Assembly (NCBI GenBank): GCA_031431655.1
Contig: JANPDV010000311.1
Span: 177 to 64,176 of the forward strand
Length of the DNA stretch: 64,000 nt
Source: Gammaproteobacteria bacterium
GTDB taxonomy: Bacteria > Pseudomonadota > Gammaproteobacteria > Steroidobacterales > Steroidobacteraceae
Direction of reading: 5' to 3'
This document shows positions 1 to 9,497 of the stretch, piece after piece. The notes under the pieces are model-generated. The model worked only from the letters and a program-made list of their open reading frames with translations, ran no database searches and was not told the DNA's origin. Within the stretch, counting starts at the first letter, position 1; each line of letters begins with the position of its first letter. Position numbers and translations under genes: made by a program.

Positions 1-439
1 GGCCCAGATCCGCGCAGATGCGATCGAGCTGCTGTTTCGCACCAGTCGCACCGATGATGGCGGGATCGAAGTGCGCGAGGTATTGGGTTAGCAGCGCCGG
101 TGTATCGCGCTCGGGATCGACGCTAAGGAACACAACCTGCAGCTCAGTGCGCTGCTGCAGGCGCGCCCTGAGCCCGGCGAGCGTCACCAGCGTCGTCGGG
201 CAGACGTCCGGGCAATTGGTGAAACCCGCGAACACCACGGTCCACCGGCGTTCAAAAACACTGCGAGTCAGCGGGCGCGCGTGCTGGTCGAGGAGTACGA
301 ACTCACCCAGCGGCACGCGTTGCGGCATGGCCGTCCCGGACCGCAGAGCGACCGGCACGGACGGTCTGCGCAGGACCACCAGCGTGATGGCCAGCATCAG
401 TGCCAGAGGCAGCAGCCAGAGAATCCGGCGAATCCGCAT
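1..439 (-). CDS. SCO1/SenC family copper chaperone / thiol-disulfide oxidoreductase (C-terminal part lies beyond the window start)
   Basis: Hand translation of the minus strand from ATG at 439-437 gives MRIRRILWLLPLALMLAITLVV... with FAGFTNCPDVCPTTL (CxxxC) and FLSVDPERDTP, typical SCO1/SenC motifs. Absent from the ORF track because it runs off the window. Confidence 0.8.
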   Translation of the reverse strand, partial: MRIRRILWLLPLALMLAITLVVLRRPSVPVALRSGTAMPQRVPLGEFVLLDQHARPLTRSVFERRWTVVFAGFTNCPDVCPTTLVTLAGLRARLQQRTELQVVFLSVDPERDTPALLTQYLAHFDPAIIGATGAKQQLDRICADLG

Positions 440-703
440 GCGCCCTCCATCCACGGAATCGGCGGCGAGTATATGCCCGAAGCCAGGACTCTATGAATCG
501 CCACCTCCGGCGCTCCCGATCACCCTGCTGCTGGCAATGGCCCCGGGCGCCGGGCGTCGCGCCCTGCGGCGATTCGACATTTCCCCGGGAGATTTGACGT
601 AGCGGCGACGGCACGGGTGGCTGTGACCCGCGTCACGGTGCACTGCGCCTGCCGGTGGTCTATTGCGGCGGTCTCCATTCAAACAACAACGGGAGTCCCT
701 ATC

Positions 704-871
704 GTGATGAATTCCAAACGAAACGCAAAGCTTCCCTCGCTCGATCCGTCACGCCTGCTGGGCGTGCGCCTCGGCACGACTGCCGCGGGTGCCAAGCTCG
801 GTGGCCAGAAGGGCGCGCCTGTGCGCCTCGATTCGAAGACAGGGCCGAAACTCGGTTTCAGCAAGAGCTGA
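704..871 (+). CDS. Small cationic Gly/Lys-rich peptide, candidate RiPP precursor (start GTG 704 or ATG 707)
   Basis: In-frame part of ORF 617..871: (V)MNSKRNAKLPSLDPSRLLGVRLGTTAAGAKLGGQKGAPVRLDSKTGPKLGFSKS. GGGAG at 691-695 precedes GTG 704 / ATG 707. GC3 about 70 percent by hand count. It sits directly upstream of the HExxH and ATP-grasp-like genes and is followed by a hairpin. Confidence 0.5.
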   Translation: MMNSKRNAKLPSLDPSRLLGVRLGTTAAGAKLGGQKGAPVRLDSKTGPKLGFSKS

Positions 872-880
872 GATTGGCCT

Positions 881-906
881 GGTCGGCTGTCTCGCGACAG
901 CCGACC
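881..906 (+). terminator. Perfect 11-bp stem / 4-nt loop hairpin after the small peptide gene (attenuator-like, no U-tract)
   Basis: ggtcggctgtc-tcgc-gacagccgacc, 10 nt after the TGA at 869-871 and 52 nt before the next ATG (958). Followed by GGGGCCC rather than a T-run. Confidence 0.4.
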
Positions 907-957
907 GGGGCCCGCAGCAGGCCGTACCCCGCAGCGCAACAGGACGGGCCCTCCGCC

Positions 958-1995
958 ATGACGATTCATCTTCGATTCGCACCCGACCCGGTGCGTGCGC
1001 AGTTGCTGGACCGGCGCATGCACGTGGAGCTCGCCTCGAGCGTGCGCTACCTCTCGAGGCAATGCGCCGGGTACGTGCCCCACGACGGCGTGGCGATACG
1101 CAGGTTCGCAGCGCGGATTGCACGCGGTGCACGCTTCGGGCCGCTGACATTCCTGGACTATTACGATGGCGTCACCGCGGCCCAGGGCGACGATCCAGAG
1201 ACCTGTGCGCTGGCTTTCGCGCGGCTCGCGTCCGCCGAGCCCGCGCCGGCAGCGCTGCGCATCGAACCCTTGCTCGACGCGACGACCTGCGAGCGCAGCC
1301 GCCGGTTTGCCGACGCGATGCTCGGTGCCGAGTTCCTCGACGTCGGTCTGCTGCCGCCGCCAGCCTCGATGGAGCGGTCCAACGAGAGCCGGCTGCTGGA
1401 GGCGCTGGCGCTGATGCAGGCCACCAGCCCCGCGCTTTGCGGCGAGTTCCGCGCGCTGGTCCGCGAGCTGGTACCCATGGTCGGCGACCCGTCGCGAGCC
1501 TTCATGATCGACGGCGGTTCCCACTATCAGCTCTGGGGCAGCCTGTTCGTCAACATGGCGAGGCACGCCACCCCGCAGGCAATGCTCGAGGTGCTGACGC
1601 ATGAAGCAGCCCACTCGCTGCTGTTCGGCCTGTGCACGCACGAGGTCCTGACGCTGAACGACGCCGCGGAGCGCTATCCCTCGCCGCTGCGGACCGACGA
1701 ACGTCCGATGGATGGCATCTATCACGCCGCTTTCGTGTCGGCACGCATGCACCTTGCGAGCAGTGATCTGCTGGCCAGCGGTCGGCTCGATGCCGCGGCC
1801 GCCGCCGAGGCGCGCGATGCCCGCGATCGCGATCTCGCCAACTTCGAGGCCGGCTACGCCGTGGTGCGCAGGCACGCGCAACTGACGGGTCTCGGCGCCG
1901 CACTGATGGCCGGGGCGCGCGACTACATCGAGTCGGCTCGCGCGCCGTTGCACGCGGTCGGTGGCATCCGGCCGGCGTTGGCTGCCAGCGCCTGA
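958..1995 (+). CDS. HExxH-motif peptide-modification protein (aKG-HExxH-type peptide beta-hydroxylase-like, TIGR04267-like)
   Basis: Internal ATG of ORF 655..1995 (MTIHLRF...). LTHEAAHSLLFGL has HExxH at nt 1600-1614. The downstream ERYPSPLRTDERPMDGIYHAAF resembles the Y-x-(S/A)-P-W/L-R-x-D-x-R-P-x-x-G pattern I recall for this family. Not checked against an HMM. Confidence 0.7.
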   Translation: MTIHLRFAPDPVRAQLLDRRMHVELASSVRYLSRQCAGYVPHDGVAIRRFAARIARGARFGPLTFLDYYDGVTAAQGDDPETCALAFARLASAEPAPAALRIEPLLDATTCERSRRFADAMLGAEFLDVGLLPPPASMERSNESRLLEALALMQATSPALCGEFRALVRELVPMVGDPSRAFMIDGGSHYQLWGSLFVNMARHATPQAMLEVLTHEAAHSLLFGLCTHEVLTLNDAAERYPSPLRTDERPMDGIYHAAFVSARMHLASSDLLASGRLDAAAAAEARDARDRDLANFEAGYAVVRRHAQLTGLGAALMAGARDYIESARAPLHAVGGIRPALAASA

Positions 1996-2007
1996 AGTCG
2001 GCCGCGC

Positions 2008-2973
2008 GTGATCATCGTCCTGACGACCGCCGCGCACGACTACACGCACAAGGTCTTCGACCGCACCGGCCGATTCGAGCTGCGTCGAATGAGCTATGGC
2101 CGCGCCCTGACCGAGAAGCGCCTGCCGCGCGCAACCTACCTGTTCACGGACCTGGACCGCCTGAACTTCTGGGAACTCGAACTTGCCGCGCGCCTCTACC
2201 GCCAGCTCGCCGACGCGGGGCTGCGGGCGCTCAATGATCCCGCGCGCGTGCGGCTGCGCTACAGCCTGCTGCGCAAACTCAAGGATGAGGGCCGCAACAC
2301 TTTCGATGTCTGGCGCCTGGAGGACACGCGCCGGCCCGCCGCAAGCGACTATCCCGTGTTCCTGCGCACCGAGTCGGCGCACCGCGGCAACCTGACGGAC
2401 CTGATCGACACGCCGGAAGCCCTGGACCAGGCGATCGAGACCGCGCTCGCCAGCGGCATGCCGCGGCGCGAGCTGCTGATCGTGCAGTTCTGCGGCGAGG
2501 CGCTGCGACCCGGCCTGTTCGTCAAGCAGGCAGTGTTCCGGATCGGCGATCGCTTCATCACCGCTCCGCAGGTCATGGAGGGGCACTGGACCGCAAAGTA
2601 CGGCGCCAAGGGGCTTGCGACCCAGGAAGACTTCGAGGATGACCATCGTGCCGTGCTCGGGAATCGGTACGGTGACAGCCTGCGGGGCGCGTTCGACTCC
2701 GGCTGCGTGCAATACGGTCGTGTCGACTTCTCGATCGTCCGTCACCAGCCCCAGGTCTACGAGATCAACACCAATCCGCACTACAGCCCGAATCTCACGG
2801 CGGATAATCCGTTGCGGATGGAAGCGGTGCGGTTCTGCCGTCAGGCGCAGGTCGACGCGCTCGCGGCGCTCGACGGTCCGGCCTCGGGCCGCAGCGTCGC
2901 TATCGGCGGCTGGCAGCTCGAAGCCCAGCGCGGCCATGATCGGTGGCTGCTGCAGACGCGCTGGACGCCTTAG
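2008..2973 (+). CDS. ATP-grasp-like ligase domain protein
   Basis: 321 aa, GTG start 12 nt after the previous stop. The layout resembles the ATP-grasp fold: YPVFLRTESAHRG... (central domain), ELLIVQFCGE..., and a C-terminal YGRVDFSIVRHQPQVYEINTNP matching the (V/I)D(F/Y)...(Y/V)-E-I-N-x-x-P Mg/ATP-site signature. Confidence 0.55.
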   Translation: MIIVLTTAAHDYTHKVFDRTGRFELRRMSYGRALTEKRLPRATYLFTDLDRLNFWELELAARLYRQLADAGLRALNDPARVRLRYSLLRKLKDEGRNTFDVWRLEDTRRPAASDYPVFLRTESAHRGNLTDLIDTPEALDQAIETALASGMPRRELLIVQFCGEALRPGLFVKQAVFRIGDRFITAPQVMEGHWTAKYGAKGLATQEDFEDDHRAVLGNRYGDSLRGAFDSGCVQYGRVDFSIVRHQPQVYEINTNPHYSPNLTADNPLRMEAVRFCRQAQVDALAALDGPASGRSVAIGGWQLEAQRGHDRWLLQTRWTP

Positions 2974-3006
2974 GCGTCAACCCCCACACCCACCCGCACT
3001 GCTGCG

Positions 3007-3864
3007 TCAGCGCGGCGACGACTGCAGGTACGCCGCACCGGTCTTGTTCTCCGCGATCGTCGCGAGCAGCTTTTCGATCGTGGGTTGCAGGATCGGTCCC
3101 ATGATCGGCGCGGTATGGCCACCGGCGATGATCTCGAGCGGGTACCGGGCCATCAGCGCGCGAAACGCCGCGACGCGCGCAGCCTGGTTTCGCTGCTGCA
3201 TGCCATTGAAAGGCATCGCCGGACGGTCGGTCGCCTGTTTCACCTGCTCAGCGGACATCTCGTGCAGCATCGTGCCGCAGACATTCGCGTCGTGCAGGTG
3301 GATGTAGCCGAAGCCATCGGCCGTGAACAGCAGCCTGCGCTTTGTATCGTAGGCCCACATGGAGCCGCTGAGGTCCTTCCAGATTGCATCTAGGACCACG
3401 AACTCGCGGTCGCCGAGGTCGAGGCGCTCGCCGTGCTTCATGGGAACGAGGCGATCGAGGTCGACCTCGGGATGGAACAGGTGATAGTCGCGCACGTCGC
3501 CGACAGCGATCGCCTTCGGGTACTTCTGCAGCAACCGACCGAGATTGCCGGAATGCGGTATTTCCTGGTGGGTGGGGAAGACGTAGTCGAGCGTGCGACC
3601 CTGCAGCACGGACTCGAGCTGACCCTCGAGCGAATACCAGTGGGCGAAGTGGCCGGTGTCGACCATCAGCGTCCTGGTCGCGCCGAGGATCAGGTAGGCG
3701 AGGCAGGGCTCGTGCGTGACGGGCCTGCGTTTCGCCGCTGGCCCCGGCCAGCCGGCCGAATTGGAGCAGCCGCCGACCCAGGCGAAGTCTGGCAACACCA
3801 TCCTGGGGAGCCCGCCGCGCACGATGTACGCGCGCTGGATGACGTCGTTCAGCAGTTCAGGCAT
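3007..3864 (-). CDS. MBL-fold protein of the flavodiiron/ODP type (variant metal motif), no signal peptide
   Basis: 285 aa. LAYLILGATRTLMVDTG..., THQEIPHSGN (H-x-E-x-P-H versus H-x-E-x-D-H), FTADGFGYIH and IIAGGHTAP align by eye with the flavodiiron-protein MBL domain. Its start overlaps the upstream stop by 8 nt (ATGCCTGA). Confidence 0.6.
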   Translation of the reverse strand: MPELLNDVIQRAYIVRGGLPRMVLPDFAWVGGCSNSAGWPGPAAKRRPVTHEPCLAYLILGATRTLMVDTGHFAHWYSLEGQLESVLQGRTLDYVFPTHQEIPHSGNLGRLLQKYPKAIAVGDVRDYHLFHPEVDLDRLVPMKHGERLDLGDREFVVLDAIWKDLSGSMWAYDTKRRLLFTADGFGYIHLHDANVCGTMLHEMSAEQVKQATDRPAMPFNGMQQRNQAARVAAFRALMARYPLEIIAGGHTAPIMGPILQPTIEKLLATIAENKTGAAYLQSSPR

Positions 3865-4846
3865 AGCGCATCCGCTCCTCGTCCGGGAGCGCGCTCGCTG
3901 CGCGCAGCGCCTTCACGGCCAGCTTCACGTGTGCGGCGACGGCCTCGCGACCGCGGATCACGCAGCCGTGCACCGGCGCGATCATGCGCACGTCGAGCTG
4001 CTGGAAAATCGACTCGAAGCGCTCGATCATCGCGGGGTACTGCGCCTCGCGCATCCAGTTCATGCGCGCGACGATCTCGCGTGCGACCACGTCAACCGAC
4101 GGCAGGTACTTCGCGGAGTCGATGACGGGCGCAGAAGCGTCGTCCCTGGCGTGCCGGAAGCCGAAGAAATCCGACGTGAACAGGCAGCCGGTCGTCTCTT
4201 CGTACACCCATTGCGTGATCAGCATCTGCTTGGCGACGGCCTCGAGCCAGCGCAGGCGCAGGTCGCCGAGACTGCGCGCGGTGTCGTTCCTCGCTTCCTC
4301 GATCGGGATGCGACCGAGGAAATCGCGCACTTCCATGATCGAGACGGCCGGATCGTTGATCCACTCGAGGATGCCGCCCGCGCTGCCGAACAGCAGCGTC
4401 GGGTTGCGGCAGGTGCCGAGCACCAGGCCCAGGTTGCCGATGCAGTCGTACTCGTTGCGCGTGTAGTGCAGCCAGACCTTGCGGCTCCCGACCAGCGTCG
4501 CGAGCGCGGACTCCATGGCCGGTCGGGCGATCGGCATGCCGAGATCCACGAAGACGCAGTGGTCCTGGTCCGTCAGGACGTAGGAGTTCAGCGGTTCCCA
4601 CGCGTCGAGATCGCCCGGCAGCCAGCTGAGGCGCTCGGCGCGGACCATGCAGCCGACGCGGTAGAGCCGGTCGGGAACGAGGGCCGTTATCGTCTGGTTC
4701 GCGGCAAAGGCGCGCCTGCCGCCGGACTCGAGCGCCGACCGCGGTCGGGCCACGGACGCGACGGCAGGGTCACCCCGAAGCAGCGCCATGATCGCCGCGG
4801 CGGACGCGCCGCCCATGATGCGCCTGCGATCAATGCCGCGAGACAT
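3857..4846 (-). CDS. Tat-signal-bearing, degenerate MBL/flavodiiron-type fold protein
   Basis: Preferred start is ATG 4846, with AGGA 7 nt upstream. N-terminus MSRGIDRRRIMGGASAAAIMALL is twin-arginine-like. YTRNEYDCIGNLG occupies the H-x-E-x-D-H position (E and D kept, His replaced). FTSDFFGFRH and APVHGCV are conserved. The ORF could extend to 4930. Confidence 0.55.
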   Translation of the reverse strand: MSRGIDRRRIMGGASAAAIMALLRGDPAVASVARPRSALESGGRRAFAANQTITALVPDRLYRVGCMVRAERLSWLPGDLDAWEPLNSYVLTDQDHCVFVDLGMPIARPAMESALATLVGSRKVWLHYTRNEYDCIGNLGLVLGTCRNPTLLFGSAGGILEWINDPAVSIMEVRDFLGRIPIEEARNDTARSLGDLRLRWLEAVAKQMLITQWVYEETTGCLFTSDFFGFRHARDDASAPVIDSAKYLPSVDVVAREIVARMNWMREAQYPAMIERFESIFQQLDVRMIAPVHGCVIRGREAVAAHVKLAVKALRAASALPDEERMRYA

Positions 4847-4943
4847 AGAGCGATCCTGCGTGAATTCGACCTGCCGGATGGTCGCGCGTCTCGCGCAGAA
4901 AATCCATCGCCGCGGCGAGCGGGCGTGCACGCCCGCATCGTTG

Positions 4944-5687
4944 CTACATCGCCGGTACGCGCGCGGGCACCGGACTTGCCCACTTCGCCACCGTCTCCGA
5001 GACGTTCTGGCGCAGCGTCTCCTTGATCGCGTGGAACTTCGGGTAGGTCGGGTGCTTCTCGGTCAGTTGTGCACGCAGCGCCAGCTTGGCCTCGGGGGCA
5101 GCCGCGTAGGCCTTGTCGTCCACGTAGGCCTTCACGAGAATCGAGTTGGCCGGGTCCCCGGCGCCCTCGGCGCGCTCGACGTACATCGTGTAGGCGTGCA
5201 TCAGCCGGGCGGTGCGCTGGCCTTCCATCAGCGGCACGATGTAGCCCTCGCTGAACTCGCGATAGCGATCCACTGAAGTCGTAAGGCGATAGACGTTGAC
5301 CTCGAATACCGCCGGTCGCGGGTCATAGGCGGGGTCGACGCCGCTGACCACCGCATCGACACGGCGCACTCGTGAACCCGCCGGCAACTTAGAGGCGGAC
5401 TGCTGGCGCCAGCGCAGGTATTCCGGCTCGCTCGCAAACTCCACGATCCCCAGCGAAGCGAACCCCGGCTCCTTCTGCGCTACCGCATCGAGCCAGATCA
5501 CCTGCGACGCGGGGCCCGCGTCGCGCCAGGCAGCGGCGGCGCGCTGCACGGCTGCAGAATCCGTTGATCCGCCCGGCAGCGTTACCAGGGCAGTGGCTCG
5601 CTGCGCGACCGCTGGAGCGCCCGCCCATGCGACCAGCGATACGAACGCGAGGGCGACGAGACGCGCAGCAATACGCACTGGTTTCAT
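4944..5687 (-). CDS. Secreted protein of unknown function (signal peptide; C-terminal half looks like an alpha+beta ferredoxin-like/Dabb-type domain)
   Basis: MKPVRIAARLVALAFVSLVAWAGAPAVAQ signal. GAGG overlaps the upstream stop, with a 7-nt gap to the CitMHS gene. No recognisable catalytic motif. Confidence 0.45.
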   Translation of the reverse strand: MKPVRIAARLVALAFVSLVAWAGAPAVAQRATALVTLPGGSTDSAAVQRAAAAWRDAGPASQVIWLDAVAQKEPGFASLGIVEFASEPEYLRWRQQSASKLPAGSRVRRVDAVVSGVDPAYDPRPAVFEVNVYRLTTSVDRYREFSEGYIVPLMEGQRTARLMHAYTMYVERAEGAGDPANSILVKAYVDDKAYAAAPEAKLALRAQLTEKHPTYPKFHAIKETLRQNVSETVAKWASPVPARVPAM

Positions 5688-5694
5688 GAAGACC

Positions 5695-7038
5695 TCAGTT
5701 TCGGGCAAGAGGGAAGATTCCGAACAACAATGCCGCCACCAGCATCATGACGCAGATGAGGATGGCCCACTTCAACGCAAATCGCTGGTGATCGCCAAAC
5801 TCGACACCGGCGAGCGCCACCAGCAGGTAGGTGGACGGCACCAGCGGGCTGAGCAGATGCACCGGCTGGCCGATCAGCGAGGCACGCGCCATCTCGACGG
5901 GTGTGATGCCGTACGCCTGCGCCGCTTCCGCGACGATTGGCAGTACGCCGAAGTAGAAAGCATCGTTGGAAATGAAGAACGTAAACGGCAGGCTGGCGAG
6001 CGCGGTGATCGTCGCCAGGTACGGACCCAGCGACGGCGGCACGATCGCGAGGAAACTCTTCGACATGGCATCGACCATGCCCGTGCCGTTCAGGATGCCG
6101 GTGAAGACCCCGGCGGCGAAGATCACGGCCACCACCGCCAGCACGTTCTTGGAGTGCGCGGCGATGCGCTCGCGCTGCTCGGCAAGGTTCGGATAGTTGA
6201 TGACAAGCGCAAGGCTGAAAGCAATCATGAAAAGTACCGGCAGCGGCAGGGCACCGGCGACCAGGGCGACCATCAGCGCCAAAGTCAGTGCCGCATTGAC
6301 CCACAGCAGCTTCGGGCGGCGCAGTCGGGCCACGTCGTCGTCCGTGGCGGCGTCGGCCGCAGCGACGTCCGCATCGCTGTCGATGCCGCCTGGCGCCCGC
6401 GGTGGACCCTCCCATGACAGCGAGCCGAGTCGCTCGCGCTCACGCCGCCCCAGGATCCAGGCGAACAGCACGACGCCGAGTACGCCCACCGCCATCGCCG
6501 GCAGCATCGGCACGAACACGTCGGCCGGGTCGACATGCAGCGCCGCCGCCGCCCGGGCCAGTGGCCCGCCCCAGGGAGTCAGGTTCATCACGCCGCTGGC
6601 CAGCATCGCGACGCAGGTCAGACTGAGCGGATCGAGCCTGAGGCGGCGGTACAGCGGCAGCATCGAGGCGACGGTGATCATATAGGTCGTCGAGCCGTCG
6701 CCGTCCAGCGAGACGAACAGCGCCAGCAAGGCCGCTCCCATCACCACGCGCAGCGGATCGCCACGCACCGCCGCCAGGATCCGCCGCACCACCGGATCGA
6801 ACAGCCCCGCGTCGATCATCACGCCGAAGTACAGGATCGCGAACATCAGCATGACGGCCGTGGGCGCCAGCGTCCGCAGCCCGTCGAGCATCATCTTGCC
6901 GAGCTCGGGCCCGGCGAAACCGCCCAGCAGCGCGAACAGGATCGGGATCGCGATCAGGGCCACGACCGGCAGCAGCCGCCGGGACATGATCAGGTACATG
7001 AACGTGATGACCATCCCGAAGCCGAGCATGGTCAGCAA
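5695..7038 (-). CDS. CitMHS family citrate(-metal):H+ symporter-like transporter
   Basis: 447 aa polytopic membrane protein. The N-terminus MLTMLGFGMVITFMYLIMSRRL... and overall pattern are typical of CitM/CitH. It carries an acidic Asp/Ala-rich central loop. Confidence 0.75.
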   Translation of the reverse strand: MLTMLGFGMVITFMYLIMSRRLLPVVALIAIPILFALLGGFAGPELGKMMLDGLRTLAPTAVMLMFAILYFGVMIDAGLFDPVVRRILAAVRGDPLRVVMGAALLALFVSLDGDGSTTYMITVASMLPLYRRLRLDPLSLTCVAMLASGVMNLTPWGGPLARAAAALHVDPADVFVPMLPAMAVGVLGVVLFAWILGRRERERLGSLSWEGPPRAPGGIDSDADVAAADAATDDDVARLRRPKLLWVNAALTLALMVALVAGALPLPVLFMIAFSLALVINYPNLAEQRERIAAHSKNVLAVVAVIFAAGVFTGILNGTGMVDAMSKSFLAIVPPSLGPYLATITALASLPFTFFISNDAFYFGVLPIVAEAAQAYGITPVEMARASLIGQPVHLLSPLVPSTYLLVALAGVEFGDHQRFALKWAILICVMMLVAALLFGIFPLARN

Positions 7039-7112
7039 GTCAGATACTCCCCAGGCTTACACAAGCTCACGCGCACTCGGTGAGGTCATCTCGATCGATG
7101 TTGTCGCGCCGG

Positions 7113-9497
7113 TTATCGGCTCATATCGTACTTGAACGAAAGCACCACGTTGCGCGGAGCACCCGGCTGGATCTGGAAGTCGCCGGCAAAACCGCCCGTT
7201 TCGATGTACTGCCTGTTCAGCAGGTTGGAGACGCGCAGCGTCGTGCTGACACGGTTGCGCGTGTAGTAGAGCCCGAGATCGGCTGTCGCATAGCCCGGCA
7301 TCGTGAACGCGAGCGAATTCAGCGTCGGCGGCGCGCTCGCCGCCGCGGTATTGAACACCGTCGGAAGAATGCCGAGGCGGAACCCTGTGTATACGAGCCC
7401 AAGGCCGAAGCCGAATCCTTCCAACGGTCCTGAACTGAAATCGTACCGCGACCAGATGTGCGCGGCATGCAGCGGCGCATTCAGAAGTCGCGACCCGAGC
7501 TGTGCAGGTACGTTGGTCTTCTTGATCTCGGTGTCGGTGTAGGTGTAGCCGAATGTGACCTGCCAGTCGTCGGTCACACTGGCATTCATTTCGAGTTCGA
7601 GGCCCTGGGCCTGCTCCTCGCCGTTCTGCGTGGTGCAGGCGGGCTGATTGCAGACGATGCCATTGACGCTGACGCCGGTTGCCACGGTTCCGAAAGCGTT
7701 TTCCTTGTTGATGCGATACAGGGCGAGCGTCGTGCTCAGGCGCTTGTCGAACGTTTCCGACTTGAAGCCGAGCTCAACCTGCTTGCCCTCCTCGGGCACC
7801 AGCGATGCGCCGGGCAGTGGCAGCGCAGTGGATGCAGGCGCCACGAACGAGGTGCTGTAGCTCAGGTAGTACGACCAGCTCTCGTTGGGCTGGAACAGGA
7901 TACCTGCCGCCGGAAACACGTCGCTCGCACTGCTATCCGTTCGCGGCAACAGGTTGCCGGCGGCATCCCGCTGCTTCAGCTCCTCCTGGGACTGACGCTC
8001 CTTGGAGTAACGCAGGCCGATCATGCCCTTCCAGTTGTCGCTGAGCTTGACCAGATCGGTGACGTACGCTCCGAAGCTGTTGTTGACCGTATAGCGCCGG
8101 TTCAGACCCGGCCCTGGTGGCAGTGCACTCAGAGGGAGTATCGGCAGACCGGCAATATTGGCCAGATAGTTTGGTGCGTAGATCGAAATATCGAGCGTGC
8201 ACTGGTTGCGCGTCAGCGAGGTGAAGCGCGCCTCGGTCGTGCCCAGTGCCGCCAGCTGCGCCGCGGCGGTGGTGCCGCCGCAAAGGCCGGTGGCCGCCGT
8301 GGGTGCGTTGAAGAACTGCCGCCGGTCGAAATCCGAGGTCTCACGCCCACCATTGACGCCCACCAGCAGCTGATGCGACACACCACCGGTGTCGAACGGG
8401 ATGTTGAGCGTGCTGTCGGCGAACCGGTAGGTACGCTTGTTGATCTGATCGCGCGCCCGTCGACCGACCGTCGTCCCGACACGGCTGGTGCCGACGTCGA
8501 TCGTGCGGATCGCGAAGCTCTCATAGCCCTTGGTATCGTCGGAGTTCCGGACGCTGCGAACCGCTGTGTTCCACTTGATCCCGTTCTCGAACTCGTGGGC
8601 CACGGTCAATGCTCCCGTATACCCCGTCTCCTTCTGCAGATCGTCGGGCTGCTGGTAGCGCGTTACCCGGGGCGCCAGCAGGCGGTAGTCGCGATTGGGC
8701 GCGACCAGGAAGTTGTCGATCGACTGCTCTCCATGCCGATACTCGAGCGCCAAAGTTGCACTGGTGCGATCCGTTGCCTTCCAGGTAATGCTCGGAGCCA
8801 GGAACTGGATCTGTTCGTTGGCCGCGAAGCGAAACGAATCGACGTCGCCGTACTCGGCGATCAGCCGATACAGGAACCGCTCGCTTGTCCCGACAGGCCC
8901 GGAGAAGTCCGCCGATGCGGTATATCCGGAGTTGTCGCCGACACTGATGCCGTCGCCCGCCCAGCCGCTCATGCGCAGGCCGAATTCCGCGACGCGTTCG
9001 GCCTGGGGCCGCTTGACATTGATGTTGACGAACCCGCCAGGCTGCGACTGCCCATAGAGAACGGACGCAGGCCCCTTGACCACTTCGATGCGATCCACGT
9101 TGATGGTCGGCGGTGAGCCGAAACGCGATCCGAGTCCCGGCAACCCATCGACCATTATTGAATTGCGGTCATTGTTGCCACTCTTGAAGCCGCGCAACGA
9201 CAGGTCGTAGCCGGTGTTGCCGGCCCGCTGCACGCCGGTCATGTACTTGTACAGGTCGGCCATGCGCGTGGTTTCAATGGCCGTCATGAAGGCATCGGTG
9301 TACGTGGTCACCGTGAAGGGGATGTCGCGCACCGGCACGTCGAGCTTGAGTGCCGCGGACGCTTCCTCGGCAATAAAGCGGCCCTTCACGACCACTTCCT
9401 CCAGTTCCTCGGTGTTCTGGCCGAGCGCAATCCCCGGAATGATCCCGACTGCGAACCCCGTGGCAATGCTCAGCCAGACTTTTTTAAGTGCAGCCAT
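7113..9497 (-). CDS. TonB-dependent outer-membrane receptor
   Basis: 794 aa. Signal peptide, plug region (EEVVVKGRF..., VRDIPFTV..., IEVVKGPASVLYG) and a long beta-barrel. Ends LSFKY-DMSR. Confidence 0.85.
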   Translation of the reverse strand: MAALKKVWLSIATGFAVGIIPGIALGQNTEELEEVVVKGRFIAEEASAALKLDVPVRDIPFTVTTYTDAFMTAIETTRMADLYKYMTGVQRAGNTGYDLSLRGFKSGNNDRNSIMVDGLPGLGSRFGSPPTINVDRIEVVKGPASVLYGQSQPGGFVNINVKRPQAERVAEFGLRMSGWAGDGISVGDNSGYTASADFSGPVGTSERFLYRLIAEYGDVDSFRFAANEQIQFLAPSITWKATDRTSATLALEYRHGEQSIDNFLVAPNRDYRLLAPRVTRYQQPDDLQKETGYTGALTVAHEFENGIKWNTAVRSVRNSDDTKGYESFAIRTIDVGTSRVGTTVGRRARDQINKRTYRFADSTLNIPFDTGGVSHQLLVGVNGGRETSDFDRRQFFNAPTAATGLCGGTTAAAQLAALGTTEARFTSLTRNQCTLDISIYAPNYLANIAGLPILPLSALPPGPGLNRRYTVNNSFGAYVTDLVKLSDNWKGMIGLRYSKERQSQEELKQRDAAGNLLPRTDSSASDVFPAAGILFQPNESWSYYLSYSTSFVAPASTALPLPGASLVPEEGKQVELGFKSETFDKRLSTTLALYRINKENAFGTVATGVSVNGIVCNQPACTTQNGEEQAQGLELEMNASVTDDWQVTFGYTYTDTEIKKTNVPAQLGSRLLNAPLHAAHIWSRYDFSSGPLEGFGFGLGLVYTGFRLGILPTVFNTAAASAPPTLNSLAFTMPGYATADLGLYYTRNRVSTTLRVSNLLNRQYIETGGFAGDFQIQPGAPRNVVLSFKYDMSR

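Follow-up and report, generated by a model that had tools for sequence, protein, structure and literature searches.

A probable precursor peptide gene beside αKG-HExxH hydroxylase and ATP-grasp genes in a Steroidobacteraceae contig

The locus and the proposed precursor gene

The DNA considered here, referred to as the window, is a stretch of 64,000 nucleotides (nt) from contig JANPDV010000311.1 of assembly GCA_031431655.1 (positions 177 to 64,176, forward strand), a gammaproteobacterium of the family Steroidobacteraceae. Close to its start, three genes follow one another on the forward strand. They encode a short basic peptide, a protein of the αKG-HExxH family (αKG, α-ketoglutarate) and a divergent ATP-grasp protein. 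It is considered probable that the first open reading frame (ORF), at 707-871, encodes the ribosomal precursor peptide of a conserved cassette made up of a peptide, an αKG-HExxH hydroxylase and an ATP-grasp ligase, and a scheme for the modification of the peptide is inferred below. A preliminary description of the same DNA had already placed a substrate peptide gene upstream of an HExxH/ATP-grasp pair, and this part of it is supported by synteny and by a hidden Markov model (HMM) of the peptide family. The features of the locus are as follows.

691-695, + strand: Shine-Dalgarno-like GGGAG, 8 nt ahead of the GTG at 704 and 11 nt ahead of the ATG at 707
707-871, + strand: probable precursor peptide gene, with ATG at 707, stop codon at 869-871 and 54 residues; the alternative GTG start at 704 adds one residue
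740-772, + strand: predicted leader recognition motif LDPSRLLGVRL, residues 12-22, from the family peptide lists and the HMM alignment
773-868, + strand: predicted core region, residues 23-54, rich in Lys and Gly, from the family core statistics
788-811 and 842-865, + strand: canonical core units GAKLGGQK and GPKLGFSK, from the family core pattern
878-909, + strand: GC-rich hairpin of 14 base pairs, beginning 7 nt past the precursor stop codon, with no T-run
958-1995, + strand: predicted αKG-HExxH-type peptide hydroxylase, 345 residues, with the HEAAH motif at 1600-1614
2008-2973, + strand: predicted divergent ATP-grasp ligase-like protein, 321 residues, GTG start, 12 nt 3' of the HExxH stop codon

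The 54-residue product of the ORF that starts at the ATG is MNSKRNAKLPSLDPSRLLGVRLGTTAAGAKLGGQKGAPVRLDSKTGPKLGFSKS. The composition given in the preliminary description was recounted and is right throughout: the peptide has seven Lys, four Arg, two Asp (D13 and D42), no Glu, eight Gly, one Phe and no Cys, Trp, Tyr or His, the motif (K/R)-L-G occurs three times (VRLGT, AKLGG and PKLGF), and the C-terminus is GFSKS. The GC content by codon position peaks at the third position, at 0.71, with 0.62 and 0.55 at the other two. The same protein is annotated as a gene in one NCBI record and two Logan contigs, contigs that have the same gene order. The window peptide matched no model in Pfam or in NCBIfam (the latter down to E ≤ 0.1), and seven more typical members of the family had no match in NCBIfam. 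A word-index search with the single peptide and an exhaustive phmmer search (1.84 billion representatives) recovered the identical sequence alone. The window peptide is short and low in complexity, and because of this its relatives were recovered by synteny only.

Conservation and distribution of the cassette

Relatives were sought by scanning one genome per GTDB species with an alignment of the HExxH protein. This gave 238 stretches with a relative, of which the best 80 loci were kept; the locus numbers used below (L001 and so on) refer to this analysis. The 80 loci span Alpha-, Beta- and Gammaproteobacteria, Planctomycetota, Verrucomicrobiota, Cyanobacteria (Synechococcus), Gemmatimonadota, Myxococcota and Bacteroidota, and the peptide, the hydroxylase and the ATP-grasp protein are co-inherited across these phyla. 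A small ORF that is positive with the family HMM lies directly upstream of the HExxH gene, always on its strand, in 76 of the 80 loci, and in the other four no more than about 140 nt separate the HExxH gene from the end of its contig. The preliminary description had raised the case that neither the ORF nor its motifs are conserved across homologous loci; conservation of a homologous small ORF in 76 of 80 loci is what was found. The gene order of the window, or variants of it, occurs in the related loci, and more than 1000 ATP-grasp homologues were found in metagenomes.

The conservation is at the level of the protein. When 75 peptides from other loci, and not the window ORF, were used to build an HMM, the window ORF scored E = 1.6e-8 (30.7 bits), and the runner-up among the 1131 six-frame segments of the window had E = 0.57. 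The ratio of nonsynonymous to synonymous changes (pN/pS) in the frame of the ORF is 0.14-0.56 over 14 related peptide pairs and 0.35 when pooled. In the nearest genome locus, L001, the DNA has diverged and the protein motifs are kept, and conservation of the amino acid sequence despite divergence of the DNA is seen across Pseudomonadota, Planctomycetota, Verrucomicrobiota, Cyanobacteria, Gemmatimonadota and Myxococcota.

Alkalilimnicola ehrlichii MLHE-1, whose genome is complete, and Synechococcus sp. CBW1107 also have the cassette, and the cultured carriers further include Thioalkalivibrio paradoxus, Quisquiliibacterium transsilvanicum and Parvibaculum sedimenti. In A. ehrlichii MLHE-1 the homologue of the peptide is MDKTDGINLDARRLLGFRLDSSVRTGAKVGDKVLDRTTTIGAKVGGKVGMKVT. 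At that locus (L083, CP000453.1 2675475-2688446) the 53-residue precursor is called as a gene and is unnamed, and the cassette is divergent from adjoining genes for NeuB, a CMP-sugar synthase and a glycosyltransferase of family 1 (GT1), that is, genes for the biosynthesis of nonulosonic-acid-type sugars. Some loci depart from the usual arrangement. In L047, from the Alcaligenaceae, a glycosyltransferase of family 2 (GT2) and an ABC transporter (5298-6038 and 6384-8150) replace the ATP-grasp gene, and the peptide and HExxH genes are kept. The HExxH and ATP-grasp genes of nine loci (L004, with the insertion at 4950-6491, and eight others) are separated by a gene for a MOP/Wzx-type flippase (Polysacc_synt_3), which could serve for export or connect the cassette to glycan metabolism. 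Otherwise the flanking genes are heterogeneous, GT2 being the commonest family with 8 of the 143 flanking genes.

The peptide family

The peptides of the family can be divided into a leader and a core. The leader follows 2-12 N-terminal residues and reads L-D-x-(S/T)-(K/R)-L-(L/Y/F)-G-(F/Y)-(K/R)-(I/L). The core, as judged from 76 cores, has a median length of 40 residues and consists of 18% Gly, 15% Lys and 12.5% Ala. Gly stands at positions -2 and +2 relative to any core Lys in 65-68% of cases and Lys at -4 and +4 in 51-57%, and the residue that follows the Lys (+1) is V, I, L, P, A or T. The canonical unit can thus be written G-(A/S)-K-Φ-G-x-K, in which Lys often recurs at every fourth residue. 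In double units the first of the basic residues is sometimes Arg, which gives (A/V)R(L/I)G(S/A)KxG. Lys is the only near-invariant side chain of the family core, and its flanking Gly residues are also conserved. Core Asp and Glu residues are not conserved: their median number is two per core, they are absent from 9 of the 76 cores, and they have no fixed register relative to Lys. The C-termini are not conserved either and vary freely (18 end in A, 11 in V, 8 in D and the remainder in other residues).

This anatomy changes how several motifs of the window peptide are to be read. Of the three (K/R)LG motifs emphasized in the preliminary description, AKLGG and PKLGF belong to two canonical core units of the form G-(A/S/P)-K-Φ-G, whereas VRLG is the end of the leader motif. 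The two-unit internal repeat proposed there, LDPSRLLGVRLG and LDSKTGPKLG, mixes leader with core. The window core holds in addition the degenerate units VRLD and SKTG, which together form the double unit VRLDSKTG. The alignment of homologous loci that had been recommended as a check shows that the KLG-type core repeats are kept, whereas the core Asp and the C-terminal F-S-x-S are not.

Two copies of the precursor are present in nine loci (L014, L020, L029, L038, L043, L044, L060, L064 and L066), and in these the cores have diverged and the leaders are near-identical. Diverged cores with near-identical leaders are typical of precursor families of RiPPs (peptides made by the ribosome and modified after translation).

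The hairpin downstream of the ORF has the sequence CCUGGUCGGCUGUC-UCGC-GACAGCCGACCGGG. The 95-nt region around it has a minimum free energy of -47.2 kcal/mol (z -2.1). Of the 76 family peptides, 23 have a similar hairpin (z < -2) within 70 nt past the precursor stop codon. Some of these hairpins are followed by T-runs, and some (L004, L026 and L054) look like intrinsic terminators. A scan for promoters and terminators gave no promoter on the + strand and no canonical terminator near the ORF. A hairpin after the precursor gene is a usual arrangement in RiPP clusters, where it raises the level of the precursor transcript relative to the enzyme genes. The hairpin at 878-909 is a candidate stabiliser or attenuator of the precursor transcript.

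The HExxH hydroxylase

The product of 958-1995 is assigned, from its sequence and its predicted structure, to the αKG-HExxH peptide hydroxylase family (TIGR04267, ChlBH fold). It matches TIGR04267 with E = 8.9e-32 and 110.5 bits (cutoff 40), and 30 homologues all keep the HExxH residues H215, E216 and H219. The AlphaFold2 model has a mean predicted local distance difference test score (pLDDT) of 93.6, and its best match in the Protein Data Bank (PDB), as found with Foldseek, is the HExxH domain of ChlBH (8s5f; E 3.6e-11, template modelling (TM) score 0.64-0.73). A second structural relative is SjiH (PDB 22ob, E 6.7e-8). The 22ob entry is SjiH-Ni and was released on 2026-02-11; SjiH may be a newly characterised αKG-HExxH enzyme, and a literature search on SjiH found no paper. 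Enzymes of the αKG-HExxH type hydroxylate the β-carbons of several residues of a precursor, including consecutive ones, and are gated by an N-terminal leader; they are also capable of chemistry at the α-C-H that leads to cleavage of the backbone (PMC12636437).

The ATP-grasp partners

The 321-residue protein encoded at 2008-2973 matched no Pfam or NCBIfam model, the ATP-grasp models included. Its fold was recognised from an AlphaFold2 model (pLDDT 91.9), for which Foldseek returned RimK, the D-Ala-D-Ala ligases (Ddl) and LysX/ArgX with E of about 1e-8 and TM scores of about 0.5. The sequence identity to RimK, to LysX/ArgX and to the ligases of the cyanophycin synthetase (CphA) G domain is 13-18%, and the graspetide ligase PruB (9bou) ranks 43rd among the fold matches. 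When 34 homologues are combined in a profile, it aligns with the Mg-site motif of Ddl, GRxDF...E-I-N-T-x-P, and R238, D240, E252 and N254 are invariant in the family. On this combination of model and alignment, the protein is taken to be a divergent ATP-grasp enzyme with an intact predicted catalytic site.

An ATP-grasp partner is found in 77 of the 80 loci, but it is of two types that are never found together. The short, 321-residue type occurs in 59 loci and a long type of 620-680 residues in 18 (for example L008 at 4976-6910 on the - strand and L051 at 1691-3721 on the + strand, and 16 other loci). The central part of the long partner matches the N/G (ATP-grasp) region of cyanophycin synthetase with E of 1e-66 to 1e-71, and the protein also matches Ngg and GshAB. 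A comparison of the short and long partners by hhalign gave no significant sequence relationship, and the two are treated as analogous members of one superfamily and not as orthologues. Since two ATP-grasp lineages serve one type of peptide, it can be argued that ATP-dependent ligation is a required function of the cassette. Two of the three loci that have no ATP-grasp partner are on incomplete contigs, and the third is L047.

Proposed modification of the peptide

The peptide is most likely modified by both of the neighbouring enzymes. It is proposed that the leader would dock the peptide on one or both of them, after which the Fe(II)/2-oxoglutarate-dependent HExxH enzyme would act iteratively on the repeat units of the core and hydroxylate them. 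The likeliest target is Lys, the only near-invariant side chain of the core, and the alternative is the residue that follows it (+1). The ATP-grasp enzyme would then carry out a ligation by way of an acyl-phosphate. The favoured form of this step is the attachment of a carboxylate, either a free carboxylate or an amino acid, to the Lys ε-amine or to the new hydroxyl, as ligation at the side chains of the Lys units would explain the conserved, repeated Lys together with the absence of conserved acidic residues and termini. Alternatively, the carboxylate at the peptide's C-terminus could be extended with a free amino acid, as is done by RimK, LysX and the G domain of CphA. The product would be a modified polycationic peptide. 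The replacement of the ATP-grasp gene by a GT2 gene in L047 and the scattered glycan genes hint that the installed hydroxyl serves as a handle for the second step, and in L047 itself the hydroxyl may be glycosylated.

A more specific proposal, and a tentative one that is less likely than not, is that the cassette is the founding case of an undescribed RiPP class, in which each repeat of a (G-x-K-Φ)n peptide would be hydroxylated by the αKG-HExxH enzyme and the ATP-grasp enzyme would then acylate each Lys or each new hydroxyl, the acyl donor being a free carboxylate or an amino acid. If so, a branched polycationic peptide, cyanophycin-like or decorated with esters, would result, and the interchange of RimK-like and CphA-G-like ligases would represent convergent recruitment for a single side-chain ligation.

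Several observations count against the assignment of the ORF as the precursor gene of the cassette. The GC content at its third codon positions (0.71) is below the 0.84-0.86 of the neighbouring downstream genes. Within its family the window peptide is rather degenerate, with only three K-x-G units, the replacement of a Gly by Asp, and V in place of F in the leader. Its membership of the family depends on detection guided by synteny, given that searches with the single peptide returned only the window peptide itself. Most loci, including that of the window, have no protease and no dedicated exporter in the cassette, and because of this the removal of the leader and the secretion of the product are unsupported.

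Alternative explanations

The most serious alternative keeps the same cassette, but has the ATP-grasp enzyme act in the manner of RimK or CphA on the C-terminal α-carboxylate only, where it would add one or more free amino acids, and the Lys units would then be no more than sites of hydroxylation or recognition. The relatives of both ligase types lend this some weight. In structure the short enzyme is nearest to RimK, LysX/ArgX and Ddl, the long partner has its matches in the G-domain region of cyanophycin synthetase, in Ngg and in GshAB, and RimK, LysX/ArgX, Ddl, CphA, Ngg and GshAB join the carboxylate of a peptide or an amino acid to the α-amine of a free amino acid. However, RimK and CphA recognise defined termini, whereas the C-terminal residues of the peptides are highly variable, and a single reaction at the terminus leaves the repeated, conserved Lys unit unexplained. 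This explanation is considered rather unlikely, although it is the best placed of the alternatives.

It is less likely again that the peptide, once hydroxylated, becomes part of the cell envelope or is linked to glycans, its hydroxyls being used for glycosylation, rather than being a classical secreted natural product. The substitution of a GT2 and an ABC transporter for the ATP-grasp gene in L047, the frequency of GT2 among the flanking genes, the flippase in nine loci and the NeuB, CMP-sugar and GT1 genes next to the A. ehrlichii cassette would all fit such a role. Nevertheless, most loci, that of the window among them, have no glycan genes nearby, the flanks are otherwise heterogeneous, and proteins of the MOP family can be plain exporters.

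The preliminary description had favoured a graspetide-like product, in which Asp would be β-hydroxylated and/or joined to Lys in an isopeptide, or the C-terminus ligated, and had related the GFSKS tail to that of the FXSXX-COOH precursors. In the corallotide pathway an ATP-grasp enzyme and a hydroxylase act on a repeat peptide that contains Lys, a Lys-Asp isopeptide being formed before Lys is hydroxylated (PMC13097080), and β-hydroxylation of Asp is within the capacity of αKG-HExxH enzymes (PMC12636437). The window peptide does have two Asp residues, and PruB is among the fold matches of the ATP-grasp protein, even if far down the ranking. The comparison with the family tells against it. Neither Asp qualifies as a conserved modification site: D13 lies in the leader, at a position that is commonly Asp and is occupied by other residues in some peptides, and D42 lies in VRLDSKTG, where it replaces the usual Gly of the (A/V)R(L/I)G unit. 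With core acidic residues that are not conserved in number, presence or register, neither Asp hydroxylation nor a Lys-Asp isopeptide has family-wide support. The likeness of GFSKS to FxSxx-COOH is coincidental, as the Phe is at -4 and not at -5, the C-termini of the family are variable, the peptide has no NCBIfam match, and no radical S-adenosylmethionine (SAM) match occurs among the scanned neighbours. The ATP-grasp protein itself is closer to RimK, Ddl and LysX than to the graspetide ligases and is matched by no Pfam ATP-grasp model. A graspetide-like product is thus judged improbable. The preliminary description had also thought classic multi-lactone graspetide chemistry unlikely, and this view is borne out by the lack of conserved acidic acceptors in the family cores.

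The idea that the ORF arose by chance in the GC-rich leader 5' of the HExxH gene, or belongs to a cis-regulatory RNA, and is not translated, scarcely deserves further consideration: spurious ORFs are abundant in high-GC DNA, the GC content at third codon positions is just 0.71 and a stable hairpin lies shortly 3' of the ORF, but the amino acid sequence is conserved across phyla over diverged DNA, the HMM score (E = 1.6e-8) and the pooled pN/pS (0.35) are those given above, a Shine-Dalgarno-like site is present, and an Rfam scan of 400-1100 found no RNA family, riboswitch or leader RNA, only one sub-threshold match of a miRNA model on the hairpin. On the sequence evidence, the untranslated leader that the preliminary description had allowed for is effectively excluded.

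Relation to known systems

The assignment of the ORF to a precursor, hydroxylase and ligase cassette invites comparison with several described pathways. The cassette would work along the lines of the known αKG-HExxH RiPP pathways (ChlBH triceptides, PflC/PosC, BipH/BpmH in biphenomycin, and nitrilobacillin), which share with it the enzyme family and an adjoining small precursor gene. Their substrates are Asp or His in cyclophanes, consecutive Gln residues with ARMD cleavage, ortho-tyrosine (oTyr), and Pro, and none has a Lys/Gly repeat core. In none of them is an ATP-grasp protein the sole other enzyme, whereas the present cassette has no radical SAM, MNIO or nitroreductase partner.

The FXSXX-COOH systems of actinobacteria consist of FxsA, the radical SAM protein FxsB and an HExxH protein (TIGR04268, TIGR04269 and TIGR04267). 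The likeness to these lies in a TIGR04267-type HExxH protein beside a small peptide gene. However, the window peptide does not have the FxSxx terminus and does not match TIGR04268, the host phyla are different, and no radical SAM/SPASM partner of the FxsB kind was found among the nine proteins scanned in 1-9497. The cassette is not a member of the FXSXX-COOH/FxsB system.

The ligases of the RimK, LysX/ArgX and cyanophycin synthetase G-domain type, which act on the carboxylates of peptides or proteins, are the best structural matches of the 321-residue protein and the best sequence matches of the 620-680-residue protein. The cassette has no S6, LysW or cyanophycin substrate context; instead the partner is a repeat peptide that is basic and varies at its C-terminus.

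Corallotide is the closest known system in logic. Its precursor has five repeats that contain Lys, and it is acted on by an ATP-grasp ligase and by a 2-oxoglutarate (2OG) hydroxylase that works around Lys (PMC13097080). Corallotide has, on the other hand, a conserved Asp acceptor in each repeat, a canonical 2OG-Fe(II) oxygenase and a recognised graspetide synthetase (PMC13097080), whereas in the present cassette the acidic residues are unconserved, the oxygenase is one of the HExxH fold, and a separate lineage that Pfam does not detect supplies the ATP-grasp protein. As no conserved Asp or Glu acceptors are found in the cores, the cassette would fall outside the definition of a graspetide.

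Many family cores read ...GAKIGAKIGGKVG..., with nearly the same alternation of Lys, Ile, Gly and Ala as (KIGAKI)3, a designed amphipathic β-strand antimicrobial peptide (PMC5667891). (KIGAKI)3 is a synthetic model peptide, and the resemblance is compositional only.

Literature searches on HExxH with ATP-grasp, on hydroxylysine RiPPs and on αKG-HExxH/IPR026337/TIGR04267 found no description of the cassette, the 2024 ChlBH similarity network being outside the search, and no curated model was found in Pfam or NCBIfam for the precursor or for the short ATP-grasp protein. The cassette is a genuine and apparently uncharacterised variant of the RiPP/αKG-HExxH theme.

Surrounding genes

The remaining features scanned around the cassette, listed below, are unrelated to it, and none of these neighbours is conserved in the related loci.

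2-439, - strand: SCO1/SenC protein, from the family scan
3007-3864 and 3857-4930, - strand: two MBL/ODP proteins (MBL, metallo-β-lactamase fold) in tandem with an 8-nt overlap, di-iron, flavorubredoxin-like
5695-7038, - strand: CitMHS permease, from the family scan
7113-9497, - strand: TonB-dependent receptor, from the family scan

The two MBL/ODP genes downstream were considered as members of the cluster and rejected, as they are not conserved in any related locus. Among the nine proteins scanned in 1-9497, one of them of no known family, there was no match to radical SAM. An antisense ORF of 752 residues at 679-2937 on the - strand, which spans the whole cassette, was set aside as an artefact of the high GC content; its apparent homologues elsewhere mirror the real genes.

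Significance

The αKG-HExxH enzymes have been recognised only recently as peptide hydroxylases, and each newly studied cluster has given new chemistry. So far this comprises the β-hydroxylation of Asp, His, Gln, Pro and oTyr and the oxidative cleavage of the backbone. The cassette described here is compact and widespread, and with its three genes it opens a directly testable way to a new post-translational modification of peptides with Lys-rich repeats, and likewise to a novel activity of an ATP-grasp enzyme. The defined leader and core motif, moreover, lets annotators find these unannotated small genes.

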